Made by a program: the position numbers and the translations under genes. Positions 14,109 through 24,204 of a DNA stretch of 64,000 bases are shown here, in pieces. The number at the start of each line of letters is the position of its first letter. Within the stretch, counting starts at the first letter, position 1. The stretch is from Escherichia coli. Lineage in GTDB: Bacteria; Pseudomonadota; Gammaproteobacteria; Enterobacterales; Enterobacteriaceae. The stretch lies in NCBI RefSeq assembly GCF_003018235.1, contig NZ_CP027439.1; one strand, 5' to 3'. Under the pieces are notes generated by a model that ran no database searches, was not told the DNA's origin, and saw only the letters and a list, made by a program, of their open reading frames with translations.

Positions 14109-15839
<1,731 letters not shown>

Positions 15840-15842
15840 CAG

Positions 15843-16020
15843 ATATCAGCATTCACGGCTTGGGATGCGTGCCGTTTTACTGGCCAAACGATTGAGGAAG
15901 CTTAATGGTATGCCTTCCTCAAATCTTGATAATGGCAGTTGCTGGTCTGTACAACATGTATTGTGGACTGAGTGGAGGAAACAACGAAAATCCAGAGCCA
16001 GAATGGCATGCCCGGGTACC
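15843..16020 (+). pseudogene. 3' part of the IS-disrupted gene
   Basis: After removing the IS and one CAG copy, the 14109 frame continues to a TAA at about 16018..16020. Confidence 0.5.
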
Positions 16021-16086
16021 TAACTTTTTCAGATGCAGGGATGCGGACAGATCATAAATCTTCATGTAATGTTTCAGGAGTCAGTT

Positions 16087-16521
16087 ATGGAAAATATGAT
16101 GAAAACTATGCGTGAGTATTTCCCCACGCGAACAGTAGTGTTCGAACAGTCTCTGGATATGTTTGGTATCACCCGGGGTAAGGATGGGAAGCTCATATTT
16201 CCCCGTCATTCTGATAACCGTTTCCCGATCGGGCGTATCCGCAAACGTCTGGCAGCTTATGGCTGGCGCGGAGAACGTCTGAATCAGGAAGTAGCGCGTA
16301 TCGTCGCGGGTCCTGGTGTTCTTCCTGAAAGAAATGATTACAGCATATTTTTTCCTTACGGATGGGAACGTAACCAGCTTACCCCTGAGATGCGGAGAAT
16401 GTTTCCCCGGAAGACTGGTCGCCGCGTGCTGCTTATGCTGGATGAGCTCCATTATATTCATGACGCCGGGGAGCGTAAGTCGTTTTCACCAGAAAGTAAT
16501 GAAGCACCCGAGGTATCATGA
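16087..16521 (+). CDS. Hypothetical protein, translationally coupled to the downstream recombinase
   Basis: ATG at 16087 preceded by CAGGAG; stop overlaps recombinase start (ATGA). Confidence 0.6.
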   Translation: MENMMKTMREYFPTRTVVFEQSLDMFGITRGKDGKLIFPRHSDNRFPIGRIRKRLAAYGWRGERLNQEVARIVAGPGVLPERNDYSIFFPYGWERNQLTPEMRRMFPRKTGRRVLLMLDELHYIHDAGERKSFSPESNEAPEVS

Positions 16522-17300
16522 ATTACCCTTCTCTTCCCGGACAGGCCTACGCCCCGGAAAAAGTGCATCTACCTATGGCCATCGATTACCCGGCAGCGCT
16601 GGCCCTGCGTCAGATGGCAATCGTCCAGGACGAACTGCCGAAATACCTGCTGGCCCCGGAAGTGAGCGCCCTGCTGCATTATGTCCCCGATTTGCACCGC
16701 AAGATGCTGCTGGCCACGTTGTGGAATACCGGTGCGCGCATTAACGAAGCGCTGGCCCTGACCCGGAGTGATTTTTCGCTGGTGCCACCCTACCCGTTTG
16801 TGCAACTGGCCACGCTGAAACAGCGGGCGGAAAAAGCGGCCAGAACAGCAGGAAGAACGCCTGCCGGCAGCCAGGCGCATCGCTTGGTACCGCTGTCAGA
16901 TAAACAGTACGTCAGCCAGCTGGAGATGATGGTGGCCACGCTGAAAATTCCCCTCGAACGCAGGAATAAACGTACTGGCAGAACAGAGAAAGCACGCATC
17001 TGGGAAATTACCGACCGCACGGTCCGTACCTGGCTCAGCGAAGCGGTTGAAGCGGCAGCGGCTGACGGGGTGACGTTCTCCGTGCCGGTGACACCGCATA
17101 CATTCCGTCACAGCTATGCCATGCACATGTTGTACAACGGTATTCCGCTGAAAGTGCTGCAGAGCCTGATGGGACACAAGTCAGTCAGTTCGACAGAGGT
17201 GTACACGAAGGTGTTTGCACTGGACGTAGCTGCGCGACATCGGGTGCAGTTCCTGATGCCCAGTGATGATGCTGTGGCTATGCTCAGGGGAAACACCTAA
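16518..17300 (+). CDS. Tyrosine site-specific recombinase (phage-integrase family, plasmid resolvase-like)
   Basis: 260 aa; catalytic residues in GARINEALAL, HTFRHSYAMHML and GHKSVSSTEVYTKV. Confidence 0.85.
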   Translation: MNYPSLPGQAYAPEKVHLPMAIDYPAALALRQMAIVQDELPKYLLAPEVSALLHYVPDLHRKMLLATLWNTGARINEALALTRSDFSLVPPYPFVQLATLKQRAEKAARTAGRTPAGSQAHRLVPLSDKQYVSQLEMMVATLKIPLERRNKRTGRTEKARIWEITDRTVRTWLSEAVEAAAADGVTFSVPVTPHTFRHSYAMHMLYNGIPLKVLQSLMGHKSVSSTEVYTKVFALDVAARHRVQFLMPSDDAVAMLRGNT

Positions 17301-17430
17301 GTGGTAAAACAACTGAAGATTACTCCAGTGTGGTCACTTAGCGATTGAGGCTAAGTTCCAGAGTGGTGGCGTTCAGTTATACCCAAGTGTGACAGGCTGA
17401 CGCGCCCGTCGGGCTTGTCCAACCCTTCGC

Positions 17431-17455
17431 CTGCTCAGATCCAAGATCTGAACAG
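17431..17455. promoter_or_regulatory. Candidate recombinase core site (imperfect palindrome)
   Basis: CTGCTCAGATCCAAGATCTGAACAG: 9-11-bp inverted arms around a short spacer, ~130 bp downstream of the recombinase stop. Confidence 0.3.
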
Positions 17456-17615
17456 ACTCACGGTTTGCGCGGTGGGTCAACAAAATTAAATACGATCACC
17501 AGAAATATTTTCTGGACACTTTTTCCGATAGTGCCGAATTGTCCAGGTTGGAAAGCATTTTTTGTGCGTTGTTGAAGGGCCGCGACGAGTGGAGCAAGGT
17601 GACAAAAATAATGCT

Positions 17616-17639
17616 GGACAGAAAAACCTGAACGTCCAA
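17616..17639 (+). repeat. Conserved inter-cassette site, copy 1
   Basis: GGACAGAAAAACCTGAACGTCCAA; consensus GGACAGAATAACCTGAATGTCCAG. Confidence 0.7.
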
Positions 17640-18129
17640 TATGGGGAAAGGATTACGTGACGGGGCGGGTTTGCTAGCAGTTCTGCGAACGTACCAGCGC
17701 ATCGAGGACTGGTAATGCCAGCAGGCTATTACGTCCGGGCTGGAAAATCGAGAGTTGCGATGATGACGAGGCAAGGGGATCGCAGACATTAACCTCTGCA
17801 ATAGAATATCTATTGCGTGATTTATTATAAATGTTATCCCTTTATTGTTTTCCAATTATCCCCGCAGTTGAAGAAATCAGCACTGAATAAAATTTTCAAA
17901 ATTTTATTCATGATGCTTACAAATAAATTAATGTAGATGAATCATCGGGATAGACTATTCTACATCAACTGCATTCTTAATTTTACGTCAAAATCAAGCG
18001 TTGCACTAAAATAAATCCTTACTAGAATAGCTATCCAGAAGAATCACCATGTATTCTTCAGTCTGACCCTCGGGCGCAGATTCTTGTTGTATTAAAATAT
18101 TGGGAAAATAAATCAGGAGTGAAAATGCA

Positions 18130-18441
18130 GTGACAGAGACACGTTACACAACGTCTGAAAGCAAAAAAGCCCTGAATAATCAGAGCTTTATTACTGGATT
18201 GGAAATGACGGCCATCAAATCCAATTCAAAACACACCAAAGGCATGTCCTCAAGTGATGAAGATAATAGAAAACTATTCAATCTACGTCAACCGAATGCC
18301 TGCGGTAACAATCCCAAAGCCGTTATCGGAGGTACGATTATGTTGCCATTGCTCAACACGTTCATGAATGCCCCTCTTCTGAGTCAGGGGGCTACTATCC
18401 TGTTTCTTGGGCTTCTTATCCTTGCGCTCAAGAACCAGTGA
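18130..18441 (+). CDS. Small protein with C-terminal transmembrane tail (family A)
   Basis: C-terminal hydrophobic stretch IMLPLLNTFMNAPLLSQGATILFLGLLILAL; shares FNLRQ...GG...LL.Q pattern with 19121..19450; start codon uncertain. Confidence 0.5.
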   Translation: MTETRYTTSESKKALNNQSFITGLEMTAIKSNSKHTKGMSSSDEDNRKLFNLRQPNACGNNPKAVIGGTIMLPLLNTFMNAPLLSQGATILFLGLLILALKNQ

Positions 18442-18476
18442 TCGCACTGAGCTGGCTTCGGCCAGCTTCTTTACTT

Positions 18477-18500
18477 GGATAGAATCACCTGAACGTCCAG
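18477..18500 (+). repeat. Conserved inter-cassette site, copy 2
   Basis: GGATAGAATCACCTGAACGTCCAG, 36 bp after stop of 18130..18441. Confidence 0.7.
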
Positions 18501-18595
18501 TCGGGCGCTAATTTATAATAAATGACCGTAGAAGGGCCATTTCTACGGCAAAGTTCTGGAGATGATAAAATAAGGGCCTTAAACAATAAAAGGGC

Positions 18596-19003
18596 TTGCT
18601 TATGACACTGGACCAACTGCTTGAAATCCACGACTGCGCTGGGCTGAGCACCTATGAACAGGAAACAATTATATCTTTCATTAACCAGCGGCGAGGTGAC
18701 TTTGGTGTAAAAGCGTTTCCGGAAATTATGCCTCCAGTATCTTGCGGCTGGATCTCCAGAAGAACAAAACAACGTTCTCAGGAGCAGGCAGACGAAAATA
18801 GCTGGAATTATTATAAACAGAAGATTCAGGAATGGATAACGCTAATCGAATTGCATGAGGCATCACTTACTAGGGGGGAAAAGCTAAAGCGCTTTGTGGG
18901 AAAGCATAAATGGTGGTTAGGAGGCACTTGCGCAGTTATCGCATCAATTACAAGCACTGTGATAGCTAGCTGGATTCTTTCGTTATGGACTTGGGCTAAC
19001 TGA
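18596..19003 (+). CDS. Small protein with C-terminal transmembrane segment
   Basis: 135-aa ORF; C-terminal WWLGGTCAVIASITSTVIASWILSLW. Confidence 0.5.
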   Translation: MLMTLDQLLEIHDCAGLSTYEQETIISFINQRRGDFGVKAFPEIMPPVSCGWISRRTKQRSQEQADENSWNYYKQKIQEWITLIELHEASLTRGEKLKRFVGKHKWWLGGTCAVIASITSTVIASWILSLWTWAN

Positions 19004-19005
19004 CG

Positions 19006-19030
19006 TGACAGAAGCTGCGTTACGTCCAAG
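19006..19030 (+). repeat. Conserved inter-cassette site, degenerate copy
   Basis: GTGACAGAAGCTGCGTTACGTCCAAG directly after stop of 18596..19003. Confidence 0.5.
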
Positions 19031-19120
19031 TTGATAAAAAGTTGTTATCCACAGAGAACAGGGCGGTCATCCGGCGGGTTCAATAATATGATATTATTAC
19101 AGCACCTTAAAAAATAAGGA

Positions 19121-19450
19121 TTGCGGACGGATGATATATTGATAAAGGATACTCATGCGTGTAAAACGCAAAATACCCTGAGTAATCAGGGTATTAAACG
19201 CGGAAAAGTAAAGGTTGAGCGCTTTACATTTTCCATTCACACCAGAGGCGTGACTAAATCTAAAATTGATTCTACGGCAACGTTCAATCTACGTCAAATC
19301 GCCAATGGTTTTCCTGTTATGAAAATTACCGGAGGCTTCATGTTGTTAACCATCATCGACACCTATCTTCATGCTTCATTACTGACACAGATACTGGTAA
19401 TCCCGTTTATCTGTGCGGTGGTGTGGGCGGTAAAGAAAATCCGGGTATAA
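19121..19450 (+). CDS. Small protein with C-terminal transmembrane tail (family A paralog)
   Basis: ATFNLRQIANGFPVMKITGGFMLLTIIDTYLHASLLTQILVIPFICAVVWAV parallels the C-terminus of 18130..18441. Confidence 0.5.
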   Translation: MRTDDILIKDTHACKTQNTLSNQGIKRGKVKVERFTFSIHTRGVTKSKIDSTATFNLRQIANGFPVMKITGGFMLLTIIDTYLHASLLTQILVIPFICAVVWAVKKIRV

Positions 19451-19504
19451 CTTAAACATGGCTGGCTGAGAGGCCAGCCATGTTCAGTGAGTTTTGTTTC
19501 GAAT

Positions 19505-19529
19505 GGACAGAATAACCTGAATGTCCAAG
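19505..19529 (+). repeat. Conserved inter-cassette site, copy 3
   Basis: GGACAGAATAACCTGAATGTCCAAG. Confidence 0.7.
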
Positions 19530-19645
19530 TTTGCAAGGAATTGTGATCGTACTACAACCAGTGTCAACCTTCCTATAATGCAGATAATCTTCTATAATTT
19601 CTTTTAATTCTGTGGCGATGTCATTAAGGAAAAGAGGTATTATTT

Positions 19646-19903
19646 ATGGGAAATAAACACATCAGCGCCAGTGAAGCTAAAAAGATTAGTTCTTCAGTGA
19701 TACCTGATGCAGACAAAACACTTGATATGATATTTGGAGGAATAAAGCTCCAAGCAAGATTGGGCCAGACATCCTTTATTTATCCTGTCCATGAAAACAT
19801 TCTTGAGCAAGTGGTCAAGGTTCTAAGGGAATCTGGTTATAGGATTAACTCATCGAAGGCTAATGAGAATAACAAATTTATTATTGAAATTAGCTGGCAG
19901 TGA
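19646..19903 (+). CDS. Hypothetical small soluble protein
   Basis: 85-aa ORF with GAGG-like RBS (aaaagaggtattatttATG). Confidence 0.5.
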   Translation: MGNKHISASEAKKISSSVIPDADKTLDMIFGGIKLQARLGQTSFIYPVHENILEQVVKVLRESGYRINSSKANENNKFIIEISWQ

Positions 19904-19962
19904 AATAGAATCCGCTTTGTCTTTATTTTACCCTTGAAGCCACCCATTAGTGTGGCTTTTTT

Positions 19963-19986
19963 TGACAAGATTACCTGAATGTCCAG
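19963..19986 (+). repeat. Conserved inter-cassette site, copy 4
   Basis: GACAAGATTACCTGAATGTCCAGG. Confidence 0.7.
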
Positions 19987-19998
19987 GTAACGCGGGGA

Positions 19999-20445
19999 TT
20001 AATGAGAAGAATAGGTAGTTGGTATATTTAGCTTGAGTCCAATCTCCTTTATGAGATTGTAGGTATTTTCCTTACTGTTGCCAGCAAGTATTGAGGTGAT
20101 CTCATTAAGGTTTTGTGCTGCACCAAGAACTTCACCCTTTGATGGTACAAACTTCATACCTAAATAGCTTCTTTTTAGGCTACCAGGCAAGGCTGCATAC
20201 TTTGCCATTAACTGAGAAGCAGCATCTTTCAAATCGTGGATGGTTTCATGATTAGCTCTGAAATTTGTGATCGTCGCTTGCTCACGTAATAAAAGCGCTG
20301 TAATCCTCCCTAATTGTTCTCTGAATGATATATAAGGCTCAATGAATCTTTTTGCGATGAGTTGACCAACAACAAAAACGGTTACGCCGGTCAGAACAGT
20401 TACGGCAGCAGACGAACTCATAATTGTACCTAGTGACTGAATCAT
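19999..20445 (-). CDS. Hypothetical protein with N-terminal transmembrane helix
   Basis: 148 aa; N-terminal AAVTVLTGVTVFVVGQLIA; divergent from 20563..21042. Confidence 0.5.
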   Translation of the reverse strand: MIQSLGTIMSSSAAVTVLTGVTVFVVGQLIAKRFIEPYISFREQLGRITALLLREQATITNFRANHETIHDLKDAASQLMAKYAALPGSLKRSYLGMKFVPSKGEVLGAAQNLNEITSILAGNSKENTYNLIKEIGLKLNIPTTYSSH

Positions 20446-20483
20446 GGGGGTTATCCTATCTGGAGGGCAACAGCCTGTCTACT

Positions 20484-20507
20484 GTACAGAAAATGCTGTA
20501 TGTCCAG
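20484..20507 (+). repeat. Conserved inter-cassette site, divergent copy 5
   Basis: GTACAGAAAATGCTGTATGTCCAG between the divergent ORFs. Confidence 0.5.
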
Positions 20508-20562
20508 TCTGTGCTGGAATTATAATGGCAACCATGATCATCACAGGAAGAACGAGTAACAG

Positions 20563-21042
20563 ATGGCAACTGCGTGGGTGGATGTGGCTGATAATGCCGT
20601 AAAAATAGGTTTGGGGTCGTTGTTGACTATTTTAGGGGGGTGGCTGACTCTTAAGCTAACACAAAAGCACGAATTAAAAAAAGAAGCGGCAGTACAGGGA
20701 TTAAAAGATAAAGAAATAAAAACCAAACGATATGTGGAGTTTCTGACCTTGTCTCAATCTCTCATGCAAAAATATTTATATGAGCAGTGTGAAGCAAATA
20801 ACGATGATTATCTTGCCTATCTTCGCATACATAATGAGATAACGATCACGTCAGGTTTAGCCATAAGGAAAGCAGCATTTAAACTCCAGTTTGATGTTTC
20901 TACTTTCATTTTCTACAACAAAATACACGACACAGAACTCATTAATGCACTGAGGGATAAGGCTAGAAATTCTGTTTCCATGTTTCAGGCCATTGTGAAT
21001 GAGGAAATCTGCAACGGAAAGTTTGGCACAGCAAGCCAGTAG
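20563..21042 (+). CDS. Hypothetical protein with N-terminal transmembrane helix
   Basis: 159 aa; N-terminal IGLGSLLTILGGWLTLKL. Confidence 0.5.
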   Translation: MATAWVDVADNAVKIGLGSLLTILGGWLTLKLTQKHELKKEAAVQGLKDKEIKTKRYVEFLTLSQSLMQKYLYEQCEANNDDYLAYLRIHNEITITSGLAIRKAAFKLQFDVSTFIFYNKIHDTELINALRDKARNSVSMFQAIVNEEICNGKFGTASQ

Positions 21043-21046
21043 CGCT

Positions 21047-21071
21047 GGGCAGAATAACCTGAATGTTTAAC
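21047..21071 (+). repeat. Conserved inter-cassette site, copy 6
   Basis: GGGCAGAATAACCTGAATGTTTAAC, 4 bp after stop. Confidence 0.6.
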
Positions 21072-21299
21072 TGCCGGAGGAATTAACCGAGGGGCGTGAA
21101 AAGGCCGCTTACGCGGCCTCAGTTTTCTCTTGAACTCCTGAAGTCTATGTAGTCGATAAACTCAAGAATATAGTAGGCAATCACGCCTGTACCTACATAG
21201 ATAGCTCCGAATATCAGTGACTCACTCATTGAAGTGTACTCCTGAATAACACTCTATTGCACATAGCCGCAAGCCAGATCCCTCGCATCCAGTATAACC

Positions 21300-21490
21300 G
21301 GACTTACTCCACTGCAGTTTCAGAAACAACTACGTCTACAGGAAGCCAGACGATTGATGTTACGAGGTTCAGATGCCAGTATTGCCGGGTACAACGTTGG
21401 ATATGAAAGCACAAGTCAGTTCTCCCGGGAATATAGACGTTACTTCGGCTATCCCCCCAAAAAGGACATTGCACGATTACGCGAAACATA
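21300..21490 (+). pseudogene. AraC-family regulator, C-terminal HTH fragment only
   Basis: Translation ...[30 protein letters not shown] matches the second HTH of AraC/XylS proteins; no upstream body. Confidence 0.6.
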
Positions 21491-21529
21491 AACATCTTTG
21501 ACATTCGCGACGTCCGACCAGCCGAACAG

Positions 21530-21554
21530 GATAGAACACCCTGAACATCTCGGC
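21530..21554 (+). repeat. Conserved inter-cassette site, copy 7
   Basis: GGATAGAACACCCTGAACATCTCGG. Confidence 0.5.
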
Positions 21555-21653
21555 TGACTGTGCTTTCATTTTTAGTCGGTTAAGCAGACGCTTTTCTGTA
21601 ATTTCTTTCAGTTCAATGTAGCTGATACTTAACTTTTTGAAATAACTAATATT

Positions 21654-21941
21654 TCACCTCATTCGTTCGCTGGCAAGATTATAAACATCACTACGTTCAC
21701 GTTTCCCTACAGCAACAACAGCGATAACTAATTGATCATCAATCACCTGATAAACCAGGCGGAAGCCAGACGCACGAAGTTTAATTTTGTAGCAATCCTT
21801 TATCCCACGCAGTTTTGCTGATGGGATATGTGGATTTTCACTGCACTTCTTTAGCTTTTTAGCAAACTGCTGCTGAATTGCCTTATCCAGTTTTTGCCAT
21901 TCTTTCAGTGCATCTTCCCTGAATCTGACTGTGTAAGTCAT
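21654..21941 (-). CDS. RelE/StbE-family type II toxin
   Basis: 95 aa; ...CYKIKLRASGFRLVYQVIDDQLVIAVVAVGKRERSDVY resembles plasmid StbE/RelE. Confidence 0.85.
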   Translation of the reverse strand: MTYTVRFREDALKEWQKLDKAIQQQFAKKLKKCSENPHIPSAKLRGIKDCYKIKLRASGFRLVYQVIDDQLVIAVVAVGKRERSDVYNLASERMR

Positions 21942-22189
21942 AGGTAGCTATCCAGATCTACATCGTGCAGCTTCTGGTTGCTGCGTTCGGCGACCAGATT
22001 AACCAGTTCCTGATCGTCTAGGGCATCGAGCATCTTTTCATACAGTTCTGCGGGGACACAGTAAAAGGCGGGCTGGTTACGGTTCAGAATCGCGACTGGG
22101 TAACCATCACCGGCACTGACTGTCGCCATCGGGTTTTTTTTCAGTTCGCTGACACTGGCGCTAGTGTCACTCAGAATAATGTGGGGCAT
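21938..22189 (-). CDS. Phd/YefM/StbD-family antitoxin
   Basis: 83 aa, overlaps toxin start by 4 bp; classic antitoxin-toxin order. Confidence 0.8.
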   Translation of the reverse strand: MPHIILSDTSASVSELKKNPMATVSAGDGYPVAILNRNQPAFYCVPAELYEKMLDALDDQELVNLVAERSNQKLHDVDLDSYL

Positions 22190-22271
22190 AGGGCACCTTT
22201 AGAGACTATTTAACAGGTCTTTATAGTGTTCTAAAAAAGACCTCTTAACAAGTCTTTTTGTCATTTTACTC

Positions 22272-22316
22272 AATGTGCCGTAAAGCCCCGCCCTTCAGGG
22301 CGAGGAGGATGTCAAA
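22272..22316 (+). repeat. 45-bp direct repeat with hairpin, copy 1 (second copy at 26028..26072)
   Basis: AATGTGCCGTAAAGCCCCGCCCTTCAGGGCGAGGAGGATGTCAAA. Confidence 0.7.
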
Positions 22317-22412
22317 TAATAGGACCCCGAAAGGATTAGTAATGTGGCGTCTTTGCTACACAGGTGCTTTTGTAATATGTTGTATAGCGTACTCACTACA
22401 CAGGAGATGTGT

Positions 22413-22952
22413 ATGGCATTGTCACAGATCAGCGTTCGTATTGATGATGAACTCAAACAACGCACGGATGAAAAAATGAAACTGCTGAGAACCAACCCCA
22501 CGCAGGCCATTACGTTGCTCTATCAGTATATTGCTGAAAATGGGAAACTTCCCTTTACTGTCAGCACCCAACTCTTCACTTCAGAGGATTACACCCAAAA
22601 ATTAATCACCACAGTCAGATCTATTTATGAATACTGGCGCGCGCTTTCTGAGACATCAGCAACAACCAGAACGAAAAGTGGAATGGCCTATTCAATGGCA
22701 ATGGCAGCACATGTTTCGAAGCTGCACAGCGATCTGATACACAACTGCGGCACCTTGAGTGGTGAAGAAGTTGCCTCATTAATGATTGTTATGGAGGACA
22801 TTCTTTCTACGCCGCCATCTTTTTATCGCGGAGAAGCGCCCGATCAGGTGTTTCAGGATAAATTAAACGCTGCTGACCAAACTATTCTGATGATTGAAAA
22901 ATGTCATGGTATGAATGTTCAACGCGGGGAAAATTTTTACGCTCTCAGATGA
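22413..22952 (+). CDS. DinJ/RelB-like ribbon-helix-helix N-terminus with ~130-aa C-terminal extension
   Basis: N-terminal MALSQISVRIDDELKQRTDEKMKLLRTNPTQAITLLYQYIAENGKLPF resembles DinJ antitoxins; C-terminal domain unrecognised. Confidence 0.5.
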   Translation: MALSQISVRIDDELKQRTDEKMKLLRTNPTQAITLLYQYIAENGKLPFTVSTQLFTSEDYTQKLITTVRSIYEYWRALSETSATTRTKSGMAYSMAMAAHVSKLHSDLIHNCGTLSGEEVASLMIVMEDILSTPPSFYRGEAPDQVFQDKLNAADQTILMIEKCHGMNVQRGENFYALR

Positions 22953-22999
22953 ATGCACTGAATATGCAACAGCCCGTAAGGGTTTTTTTTGTGTACGCA

Positions 23000-23022
23000 G
23001 GACAGTTAATCCTAGTGTCCAG
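23000..23022 (+). repeat. Conserved inter-cassette site, copy 8
   Basis: GGACAGTTAATCCTAGTGTCCAG. Confidence 0.5.
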
Positions 23023-23085
23023 TGTGGAGCGGAAGTTACGTAACATTTGACGTAAGTATTTTTGGGATACTTATGAACTGAAATA

Positions 23086-23105
23086 AGATTTCGCATGCGA
23101 AATCT
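23086..23105. promoter_or_regulatory. parS-like palindrome 1
   Basis: AGATTTCGCATGCGAAATCT perfect palindrome. Confidence 0.6.
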
Positions 23106-23306
23106 ATTGCGTATCATTATTGATACTCTATGATTTCTCTGTATACTGTTCATATTGTCATGAACGTATGGCAACAAACGCAGTAGTAGATAGCTGCTTC
23201 TGCATCTTGGCGCAACGCCTGACTCACAGGAGTGTGTATGAAATACCGCAATGAATTCATATCATTACAGCAATACTTTTTCAATCCGCGCCGCCCCCTC
23301 TCAAAC

Positions 23307-23322
23307 ATTTCGCATGCGAAAT
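23307..23322. promoter_or_regulatory. parS-like palindrome 2 (parA operator position)
   Basis: ATTTCGCATGCGAAAT 15 bp upstream of the parA start. Confidence 0.6.
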
Positions 23323-23337
23323 CTTAAGGACTGTTAC

Positions 23338-24204
23338 ATGACACTGAAAATTGGACCTATCGGAAAATTAATCGTTATATGTAGCCAGAAGGGCGGAATC
23401 GTAAAATCGCAGTCATCCAGCGAAATAGCATATGATCTTCGAGAATCAGGTTTTCGTGTGCTTGAAATTGATATGGACTGGACTACTGGTCTGACAGAGA
23501 GAGCTTTCCCCGATAGCTTACCCTATGAGATAGAGCGCGAACCTTTAAGTAACAGTTTTACACCCGGCGAAGCGAATACATATCAGCTTTTCTTCCCGGA
23601 CACTGAAGTTCGACCGATTGAGCTTCCTGGCGGGCGTTTTTTTATTGGCGCTACCAGTGAGCTTAATGAAATTAACTACCGCAACAGCGACTGTATGTTC
23701 GACTTCAGAGACCGTATTGAAGAACTGAAGAAACAGTTTGATTTTATTATTGCTGATTCAGCGCCATCATATTCAAACGTTATGATCGCCGCACATATGT
23801 CAGCTGACTATCTTCTGATCCCTACTCTGTTGGAGAAGCAGGCCCGAAATGCAGTTGGTAAACAGCTTACTTACATGCAAAAAATAAAACGGAACTATAA
23901 TCCATCGTTGCAGTTTATGGGCACTTATGTGACCCAAACACCGGTAAAAAATTATAAAAAGCCGCTTAAAGAAGGGTATTTGGGACCTATTGATACACTG
24001 AATCTGAATCTACTCATTGAGATCCTTCAGGGAAAAGGATATTCCGAAGAGTACATTCTTGCCTATATATCATTTGTACCTGCTGCTGCCAAAGAAGCGA
24101 TAGAACTTGGCCTCTCATTTGATGAATATGATCCTAAGTGTCTTCCTGCAATTCAGTATAAAGAGCTTACCCAGAAAATTATTCAGATCGCAGGAGATAA
24201 ATAA
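23338..24204 (+). CDS. parA: ParA-family partition ATPase
   Basis: Deviant Walker A (ICSQKGGIVKSQ); overlaps parB start (TAATG). Confidence 0.8.
   Translation: MTLKIGPIGKLIVICSQKGGIVKSQSSSEIAYDLRESGFRVLEIDMDWTTGLTERAFPDSLPYEIEREPLSNSFTPGEANTYQLFFPDTEVRPIELPGGRFFIGATSELNEINYRNSDCMFDFRDRIEELKKQFDFIIADSAPSYSNVMIAAHMSADYLLIPTLLEKQARNAVGKQLTYMQKIKRNYNPSLQFMGTYVTQTPVKNYKKPLKEGYLGPIDTLNLNLLIEILQGKGYSEEYILAYISFVPAAAKEAIELGLSFDEYDPKCLPAIQYKELTQKIIQIAGDK

Follow-up and report, generated by a model that had tools for sequence, protein, structure and literature searches.

Two short open reading frames (ORFs) in a 64,000-nucleotide stretch of Escherichia coli DNA (assembly GCF_003018235.1, contig NZ_CP027439.1; this whole stretch is hereafter the window) raise the question of whether they encode the pair of related membrane proteins that their translations suggest. 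ORF A (18130..18441, 103 amino acids (aa), plus strand) and ORF C (19121..19450, 109 aa, plus strand) enclose a third frame, ORF B, and were described in a first-pass annotation as paralogous, small, tail-anchored proteins. The analysis presented here leads to another anatomy. Judged from sequence signals and their conservation, A and C are probably two diverged copies of a self-contained type I toxin-antitoxin-like module of ~400 bp with a hok/mok/sok-style logic, and, with no match in Pfam, NCBIfam, PADLOC or Rfam, they are best read as a new family of such modules. Read directly from the sequences were the paralogy, the signals and their conservation, the covariation in the RNA, the protein-coding substitutions in the peptide and, in one homologue, an ORF split in two.

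Paralogy, as proposed in the first-pass annotation, is borne out by 31% identity over 93 aligned residues (E=6e-13), and a covariance model of the shared antisense element described below picks exactly these two places in the window (E ~1e-19 to 1e-24), so that the resemblance lies far beyond chance. ORF C most likely starts at TTG 19139 and not at 19121, which gives both frames 103 codons. The hydrophobic C-termini also proved real: the Kyte-Doolittle maximum over 19 residues is 2.02 in A (residues 82-100) and 2.27 in C, both above the membrane-helix threshold, and a basic tail follows in each (KNQ in A, KKIRV in C); the LL.Q motif, which had been placed at the end of the hydrophobic tail, precedes the helix. 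Searches of A, B, C and the short peptides against Pfam, NCBIfam, PADLOC and PHROGs returned nothing for A, C and the peptides, and phrog_34759 for B. With no Pfam, NCBIfam, PADLOC or useful PHROG match, the earlier statement that a function cannot be assigned to A and C from protein sequence holds, and existing annotation of the family is a "hypothetical protein" of 103-109 aa, or none.

A word-index search recovered seven clusters in an index of 5.8 billion proteins, and an exhaustive hidden Markov model (HMM) search seven proteins at E<1e-3 among 1.84 billion representatives; supposed Klebsiella homologues of C at 34% identity turned out on inspection to be ordinary A-type copies. The seven lineages compared throughout are sequence-distinct homologues. 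Their hosts (loci carry numbers with the prefix L) are IncX1 plasmids (L008-L012), Salmonella plasmids (L014, L045), F-type plasmids of Klebsiella and E. coli (L005, L006, L018, L019), the end of a Rac-like prophage (L017), a P2-like prophage region (L020-L022) and a metagenome contig (L023). All seven keep one order of parts: a -10 element, a first Shine-Dalgarno sequence (SD1), a mini-ORF, a leader (~67-70 codons), an antisense terminator, an antisense promoter, a second Shine-Dalgarno sequence (SD2) with its start codon, a hydrophobic peptide of 32-39 aa and a GC-rich hairpin with a T-run. The start codon of the peptide is ATG across lineages, except for GTG in L017, and the modules that lie outside arrays, in prophages, keep all parts.

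Which of these parts is read as protein was judged from substitution counts in four A-type lineages. Over the last 33 codons the differences fall on the three codon positions as 49/21/78, and the ratio of nonsynonymous to synonymous differences per site (pN/pS) is 0.18-0.64 (down to 0.1-0.2; the corresponding substitution ratio dN/dS is ~0.1 against the most distant member), which is clear selection at the protein level. The first 70 codons gave 73/62/101 and a pN/pS of ~0.55, modestly better than the 0.61-1.25 of the other five frames of that stretch, and this region has no family match; dS is depressed in the leader, as constraint on the nucleotides themselves would predict. Substitutions clearly typical of protein coding are confined to the last 33-36 codons.

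Leader and peptide are moreover separable, and one continuous ORF is not found in all homologues. In L023 the frame reads ...ALI-TGA, with the TGA inside the internal SD (TGAGG), and GAGG-N7-ATG and a hydrophobic ORF of 36 aa come after it; with a stop between the leader and an intact peptide ORF, the peptide is therefore an independent cistron there. P0017 is a frameshift variant in which the two frames are uncoupled, and one group of Klebsiella plasmids (L005) is frameshifted by an extra A in the A-run of the leader. Nevertheless, the ~70 codons of the leader frame are free of stops in every lineage, whereas each other frame has 3-8, and its two indels are in frame. Since it has no stops and yet a weak coding signal, the leader seems to need translation, whereas its amino-acid sequence matters little, the same situation as in mok of hok/sok. 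Its conserved blocks match promoter, terminator and anti-SD signals to the base. Thus, FNLRQ and GG, which had been taken for protein motifs, are of another nature: the FNLRQ codons form a 15-nt block, TTCAATCTACGTCAA, which is the complement of minus-strand promoter sequence (the conserved -35 box), and GG is part of a GGAGG ribosome-binding site.

The same data bear on the alternative that A and C are after all tail-anchored membrane proteins of 103 aa, acting, for instance, in exclusion, immunity or defence, with the minus-strand signals incidental or tuning expression. Six of the seven lineages keep the long frame open where other frames have stops, the indels respect it, no other of the six frames has a pN/pS as low as its 0.55, and SD1 and the start arrangement are conserved. 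We consider this alternative quite improbable, since the stop in L023 falls exactly at the internal SD and leaves the peptide ORF intact, frameshift variants exist (P0017 and the extra A in L005), the N-terminal motifs are nucleic-acid signals in which some compensatory changes alter amino acids, and the N-terminal domain is without family or structural match.

On the minus strand, a generic signal scan placed a near-consensus sigma-70 promoter inside both A and C (10 of 12 consensus positions each), of which both hexamers and the 17-nt spacing are conserved in all lineages. About 70 nt beyond it stands a hairpin with a 10-bp stem and a T-run (18189..18166 in A, 19195..19172 in C), the block of which translates as (K)ALNNQS in A and TLSNQG in C; between the two copies it shows two fully compensatory pair changes, as well as T-G wobble pairing possible on the minus strand only. 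The antisense RNA of ~100 nt predicted from these signals overlaps leader codons ~10-42 and is perfectly complementary to them. The consensus fold of seven minus-strand sequences has three stem-loops with 33 pairs and 94.8% of cells paired, and 14 of the 33 pairs change on both sides, compared with 4.8 +/- 1.6 in column shuffles (0/500 reach 14) and 2-4 in controls with the partners slid by 1-3 columns. Strand asymmetry points the same way: several G-U pairs are valid on the minus strand only, alifold assigns the consensus -39 to -41 kcal/mol when folded as the minus strand versus -23 as the plus strand, and the z-scores of the minimum free energy are -5.5/-6.5 versus -2.5/-5.1. The middle hairpin folds about equally well on both strands, as is expected for a sense/antisense pair meeting through complementary loops. 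An Rfam search at E<=1 over 15800-23600 yielded nothing relevant. In silico, the conserved minus-strand promoter and terminator, the covarying structure and the strand asymmetry together mark the element as a candidate antitoxin small RNA (sRNA).

On the plus strand, a -10 element, in part of the extended type, ends 25-27 nt before the ATG of the mini-ORF in six of the seven lineages and 33 nt before it in C. The mini-ORF has the form ATG-NNN-TGA (ATG ATA TAT TGA in C), and the overlap of its stop with the leader start (GTGA/TTGA) is kept in 7/7 lineages. SD2 is GGAGG at 18328-18332 in A and 19331-19335 in C, 7 and 4 nt before the in-frame ATG, and takes the forms GGAGG, GAAGG, GAGG and GGAG across lineages, SD and start codon being conserved. 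It is predicted to be masked by a block in the leader, TGCCTGCGGT (18297-18306), which translates as 'NACG'; this anti-SD/SD2 helix comprises nine pairs in the seven-lineage consensus fold and is kept in the A-type copies, L020 and L023. Each module would thus hold, in a cistron of its own, a hydrophobic peptide of less than 60 aa with a predicted membrane helix (hydropathy 2.0-2.3), and gene callers have elsewhere called such short versions of ORF C (P0019, P0021). That the loci are decaying remnants or non-coding repeats of the cassette array, with spurious ORFs, would agree with the many copies left unannotated by PGAP and with the very small family; given the strong codon-position periodicity and low pN/pS of the peptide ORF, its conserved SD and start codon, and the prophage copies that keep all parts intact outside arrays, it is extremely unlikely.

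From these parts, expression, coupling, toxicity and a biological role may be inferred as follows. A weak sense promoter with an extended -10 would give a messenger RNA (mRNA) of ~350 nt with mini-ORF, leader, peptide ORF and terminator. Ribosomes would bind at SD1 and read the mini-ORF, after which re-initiation at the overlapping GTG/TTG would be inefficient, while the anti-SD block in the leader would mask the internal ribosome-binding site; translation of the leader would melt this helix and allow initiation at SD2, as in the coupling of mok to hok, and where the frames are fused, leader ribosomes could simply run on into the peptide. The strong antisense promoter inside the leader would supply an abundant sRNA of ~100 nt that pairs with leader codons ~10-42 and, by elongation block, cleavage or destabilisation, would keep the peptide off. 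Upon loss of cassette or plasmid, or decay of the sRNA, the stable mRNA would be translated, and the peptide would insert in and damage the inner membrane, with post-segregational killing or stabilisation of the cassette as outcome and possibly abortive infection. Neighbouring cassettes and related arrays carry addiction and defence genes (RelE/ParE-Phd, ToxN, DinQ-like toxins, an OLD/GajA-like ATPase).

Among known systems, hok/mok/sok (parB of R1; srnB, pndA, flmA) comes closest in logic. Like A and C it is borne by plasmids or prophages and combines a small membrane peptide, a toxin in Hok and a putative one in A and C, with a short antisense RNA made in cis and directed at a leader frame ahead of the toxin start, not at that start itself; in hok, toxin translation depends on an overlapping or preceding leader ORF, as it may in A and C, and the mRNA of ~350-400 nt, predicted in A and C, has its own terminator. 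However, neither the long nor the short ORFs match a Hok/Gef profile in Pfam or NCBIfam even at E<=10, and Rfam gave no Sok match at E<=1. The peptide has 33-39 aa instead of the ~50 of Hok and is without the periplasmic Cys domain of Hok; the predicted antisense RNA, which has three hairpins in ~100 nt, would pair with leader codons ~10-42 and not, like Sok, with the ribosome-binding site of the leader; and the leader, unlike mok, shares the reading frame of the toxin-like ORF, to which it is fused in most copies, and is preceded by a conserved start-stop-like mini-ORF. Hydrophobic toxins of 27-35 aa with charged ends are likewise found in the enterobacterial type I systems ldr/rdl, dinQ/agrB with the DinQ-like DqlB of plasmids, tisB/istR-1 and zorO/orzO, where the sRNA acts on the 5' part of an mRNA in which the ribosome-binding site of the toxin is structurally masked. 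The sRNA genes agrB, istR and orzO are divergent or upstream and of limited complementarity, whereas that of A and C is a fully overlapping cis-antisense inside a long leader. The peptides gave no match to the NCBIfam/Pfam DinQ models, where DinQ and DqlB were concerned, and no HMM match to ldr-, tisB- or zorO-type toxin families; DinQ-like genes occur beside the same arrays. Nothing relevant to A and C was found on type I systems of IncX plasmids in the searchable literature.

Whether the peptide is a toxin is a question of its own. The known type I toxins Hok, Ldr, TisB and DinQ are hydrophobic with a basic tail, like the peptides of A and C, and the guess of the first-pass annotation at toxins fits the toxin-like peptide proposed here, although its anatomy, a tail-anchored protein of ~105 aa, was largely a misreading. 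The same architecture could serve a non-toxic, regulated small membrane protein, concerned, for example, with phage or conjugation exclusion or with the modulation of a membrane complex, the sRNA being an ordinary regulator. This reading draws on the structural evidence that also underlies the toxin; neighbouring cassettes encode several further small membrane proteins of unknown role, and the copy in the P2-like prophage lies in a stretch flanked by tail-fibre and DinI/S24-peptidase genes. We regard it as unlikely, because weak starts, a masked SD and a strong, constitutive-looking antisense promoter amount to the multi-layer silencing that is a hallmark of lethal type I toxins (hok/sok, tisB/istR, dinQ/agrB), because size and composition are as in known pore- or depolarisation-type toxins, and because the arrays are rich in addiction modules.

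Several observations weigh against a type I module. The family is tiny and its C type essentially one sequence, so the comparative power is that of ~7 related lineages. The coding signal of the leader is weak but present (lowest pN/pS of six frames, in-frame indels, no stops), and with leader and peptide fused in the window, a product of 103 aa is possible and could be the real protein. The sense promoter is weak, without a clear -35, and was not called by the generic signal scan, and the anti-SD helix has one covarying pair only and is poor in C. If the type I reading is right, which we hold to be probable, it would explain a conserved gene of plasmids and prophages and offer a compact model of multi-tier translational control, with start-stop mini-ORF, leader, masked SD and cis-antisense RNA. 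Loci of type I systems are annotated too rarely, as neither of their two parts has matches in protein databases. Addiction modules of this kind may stabilise accessory cassettes on IncF and IncX resistance and virulence plasmids. The features of the region are collected in Table 1.

Table 1. Coordinates of modules A and C, ORF B, the cassette boundaries and the array head in the window.
Feature	Coordinates	Strand	Sequence, basis or remarks
resD	16518..17300	+	260-aa tyrosine recombinase; 86% identical to F-plasmid ResD; Phage_integrase/Xer-like HMM matches
Head element H, 33 bp	17513..17545	+	TGGACACTTTTTCCGATAGTGCCGAATTGTCCA; opens array; 13+ distinct loci, different Enterobacterales
Site 1, start of cassette A	17615..17638	+	TGGACAGAAAAACCTGAACGTCCA; repeat family D1/D2; junction analysis
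Sense promoter -10, A (putative)	18093..18098	+	TAAAAT; from position; no strong -35
SD1 and mini-ORF, A	18115..18133	+	AGGAG 18115-18119; ATG CAG TGA 18125-18133; stop overlaps GTG 18130
Leader frame A, 70 codons	18130..18339	+	In frame with toxin-like ORF; 0 stops vs 3 and 7 in other frames
Predicted antisense sRNA A, ~100 nt	18155..18256	-	Three stem-loops; terminator 18166-18189; covariance model E=5e-24; z=-5.5
Antisense promoter A	18263..18291	-	TTGACG 18291-18286, 17 nt, TATTAT 18268-18263; 10/12 match
Anti-SD block A, predicted pairing with SD2 region	18297..18334	+	18297-18306 with 18325-18334; 7-lineage consensus fold
Toxin-like ORF A, 33 aa	18340..18441	+	MLPLLNTFMNAPLLSQGATILFLGLLILALKNQ; own SD and ATG, coding pattern, membrane-helix hydropathy
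Rho-independent terminator A	18449..18468	+	GAGCTGGCTTCGGCCAGCTT and T-rich tail; hairpin kept in L008, L014, L017, L020, L023
Site 2, A/B boundary	18476..18499	+	TGGATAGAATCACCTGAACGTCCA; IncX1 homology starts exactly here
ORF B, 133 aa	18602..19003	+	ORF from 18596, 135 aa; all-helical; phrog_34759
Degenerate B/C boundary site	19006..19028	+	TGACAGAAGCTGCGTTACGTCCA; one base deleted; read from sequence; missed by gapless repeat tools
Sense promoter, extended -10, C (putative)	19092..19097	+	TGaTATTAT
SD1 and mini-ORF, C	19116..19142	+	AAGGA; ATG ATA TAT TGA 19131-19142; stop overlaps TTG 19139
Leader frame C, 67 codons	19139..19339	+	In frame with toxin-like ORF; 0 stops vs 6 and 7 in other frames
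Predicted antisense sRNA C, ~100 nt	19161..19262	-	Terminator 19172-19195; covariance model E=3e-19; z=-6.5
Antisense promoter C	19269..19297	-	TTGACG, 17 nt, TAGAAT; 10/12 match
SD2 and toxin-like ORF C (19340..19450), 36 aa	19331..19450	+	MLLTIIDTYLHASLLTQILVIPFICAVVWAVKKIRV; own SD and ATG, hydropathy
Terminator hairpin C	19457..19482	+	CATGGCTGGCTGAGAGGCCAGCCATG and T-rich tail; read from sequence
Site at end of cassette C	19504..19527	+	TGGACAGAATAACCTGAATGTCCA; IncX1 homology ends here

The occurrence of two paralogous modules so close together is explained by their setting, as both are cassettes of a repeat-bounded array. A 24-bp site with the consensus TGGACAGAA-N10-GTCCA, all copies of it in direct orientation, recurs at 17615, 18476, 19006 (one base deleted), 19504, 19962, 20483, 21046 and, weakly, 21529, where 0 matches are expected by chance; with such sites around each ORF, A, B and C are three separate cassettes. 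Where the window shares homologous blocks with IncX1, IncF and Klebsiella plasmids, each block is delimited exactly by these sites. Cassette A follows three different upstream sequences (in the window, L005 and L006), and a cassette beginning with TTACCTGAGTGTCCAACCCATT has A before it in L018, C in L001 and yet another cassette in L012. Cassette A is always accompanied by a variant left arm, TGGATAGAA, and position 11 of the site onward always segregates with the downstream cassette; since left arm and position 11 onward segregate separately, the exchange point lies within positions 6-10 (AGAAT). The pattern agrees with strand exchange at one fixed point, on the edge of one arm, and not with homologous recombination or a central crossover by a serine recombinase.

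Several other identities of the 24-bp repeat were considered and rejected. A serine recombinase crossing over at the centre of the palindrome is at odds with position 11 already going with the downstream cassette; a ParB centromere with sites that travel with cassettes into backbones without this parAB; an attC, Xer or shufflon site with a different sequence and architecture; and a mere operator would leave homology breakpoints within 5 bp of each other unexplained. Nor is the site rfsF, as its pattern is absent both from the stretch upstream of ccdAB in F and from the remainder of the 14-kb F locus, and the rfsF region, read directly in F and R64, differs from it in sequence. In the searchable literature no description of the 24-bp sequence or of ResD-linked cassettes was found.

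The array is opened by a 33-bp element, H, with the consensus TGGACAyTTTTTCCGATAGTGCCGnAAtGTCCA, a palindrome with the same arms, TGGACA/TGTCCA, as the 24-bp sites. In the survey, a sample of ~30 loci, H opens every array examined; it stands also at L001 4748, L004 3445, L005 5194, L006 4135, L014 5006 and 9829, L028 6782, L029 4082, L033 7999, L034 6356, L040 9497, L041 12282 and L044 1806, and is absent from the F locus (14 kb) and the R64 locus. From its start to the first 24-bp site the distance is 101-103 bp in six loci, the window included, and 91-186 bp in the others. When one genome per species was scanned, the 24-bp site turned up in ~13 genera of Enterobacterales.

The usual neighbour of H is a gene of the ResD family. 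Such a gene is found in the window, L004, L005/L019, L029 (Hafnia; 86% identical to ResD of the window) and L048, and distant ResD relatives (42-44% identity) adjoin it in Rouxiella, in the metagenome-assembled Enterobacteriaceae L040 and in Erwinia, in differing orientations. A divergent serine resolvase lies beside the array in L006, L014 and L049, and no tyrosine recombinase was found on the IncX1 plasmids. L048 and L049 hold the same cassettes (a B-like gene, two small ORFs, ParE-Phd) behind ccdAB-ResD-Rpn and behind Rpn-serine resolvase, respectively. The best candidate for the enzyme of cassette exchange is a ResD-family recombinase, acting in cis or in trans.

Integrons come to mind, yet the components differ. 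Models of the integron integrase scored only 63 and 49 bits in the search for an IntI-type integrase, against cut-offs of 265 and 435; the boundaries are no attC sites but TGGACAGAA-N10-GTCCA sites of 24 bp, the variable part of which travels with the downstream cassette; and they are no 28-bp XerC-6-XerD sites either, differing in sequence and length from dif, cer and psi and all standing in direct orientation. Chromosomal integrons carry as individual cassettes addiction modules with their own promoters, which are thought to stabilise the array; there these are type II protein-protein systems with attC and IntI, while here RNA-controlled modules lie between 24-bp sites with a ResD-like neighbour. 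The pdif modules of Acinetobacter likewise are small gene modules, often toxin-antitoxin pairs, between short recombinase-type sites, in varied backbones and combinations, though with 28-bp 11-6-11 Xer sites in alternating orientation instead of direct repeats of another sequence behind a 33-bp head element. Taken jointly, the observations could reflect an undescribed integron-like cassette system of Enterobacterales plasmids, with exchange within AGAAT and cassettes shuffling between IncF, IncX1 and other backbones, in which A and C would form an RNA-controlled addiction family with a relay from mini-ORF via leader to toxin that stabilises the array; this combined proposal is tentative, and we would not call it the likelier outcome. 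If real, it would be a second integron-like route by which genes for defence, addiction and small membrane proteins are shuffled among enterobacterial plasmids. The array context may then matter more than modules A and C, as the junctions point to site-specific exchange beside plasmid resolution genes.

ORF B is not a paralogue of A or C. Its family comprises nine clusters with the conserved core WNYYKQKIQEWITLIELHEASLTRGEKLKRFVGKHKW, and its AlphaFold model is all-helical (predicted local distance difference test score 67) and found no match in the PDB below E=2.9 with Foldseek. The first-pass annotation had B ending in a transmembrane segment; a hydrophobic stretch is there (1.92), but homologues score 1.14 and 1.53, so the tail is not a conserved membrane anchor. 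B adjoins a module of the A/C type in 4/7 contexts, namely in the window (A-B-C), IncX1 (L001; B-C), a prophage (L017; A-B) and a Salmonella plasmid (L045; B-A), and is without such a neighbour in a Klebsiella phage-plasmid and three other arrays. With variable order and adjacency in 4/7 contexts, B is unproven as an obligatory partner of A and C; a functional link may exist. The site that separated A from B is decayed in the prophage copy (L017), and the A-B pair therefore moved as a unit. An antisense arrangement specific to B was dismissed, the hairpin upstream of B not being conserved in L017.

As to the replicon, comparison with other plasmid records shows the window to be a strongly mosaic enterobacterial plasmid region, with sub-segments 98-99% identical to IncX1, IncF and Klebsiella IncFIA/FII plasmids and a best single record that spans <=34% of 16000-24000. 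Upstream, an IS3-family transposase ORF (15064..15831) ends ~200 bp 5' of a 162-aa ORF (16033..16521), which matches phrog_26837 (E=5e-65) and overlaps the start of resD by 4 nt. The IS3-family element may have removed the region that corresponds to rfsF of F and R64, and the 162-aa protein may be an accessory factor of ResD. Plasmid F itself holds a lone site-like sequence, TGGACAGAACAACCTAATGAACA (L002 5970-5993), 298 bp downstream of resD, the distance to the first site of the window being 315 bp; without head element or cassettes, it may be an empty or decayed platform. In many plasmids a gene for a recombination-promoting nuclease of the Rpn family (PF04754, YhgA-like) lies beside the array head (L005 3880-4815, L014 2796-3737, L019 969-1904, L045, L048 2296-3141, L049 3-941); it is absent from the window. 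L040 and L044 show, between H and the first site, a DnaA-box-like TTATCCACA in a conserved block, ACTAGATGTTGATTATCCACAGAA, and the loci with it are those with distant ResD relatives.

Among the further contents of the array, which is enriched in small membrane proteins of unknown function, the next two cassettes (19999..20445, minus strand, and 20563..21042, plus strand) encode small proteins with N-terminal membrane segments, the first of which matches phrog_7512 (unknown function; E=2e-46). The cassette at 21070-21528 contains on its minus strand a hydrophobic ORF of 36 aa (21119..21229), MSESLIFGAIYVGTGVIAYYILEFIDYIDFRSSREN, with an AGGAG SD and a strong terminator hairpin at 21102-21119, which may be another toxin of the type I kind. 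Also inside a cassette lies what appears to be a gene remnant (21354..21491, plus strand), similar to the C-terminal helix-turn-helix of an AraC-family regulator. Genes for defence or addiction were located at L001 9976-12914 (IncX1; an OLD/GajA/AriA-like ATPase with a 169-aa partner), at L014 9961-10554 and in the window at 21654-22189, the types including ToxN and RelE/ParE-Phd. A group II intron (ltrA) resides inside one cassette of an IncX1 array (L001 5966-9975), and in IncR plasmids a group II intron reverse transcriptase (retA) has been recorded in the same backbone as rfsF-resD (PMC9412624). On its 3' side the array of the window is followed by a RelE/ParE-Phd pair, by parAB and a RelB-like gene and, at a greater distance, by tra genes. 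The perfect palindrome AAGATTTCGCATGCGAAATCTT occurs there twice (23085-23105 and 23304-23324), flanking the start of parA, and this pair is probably a partition operator or a centromere-like site.

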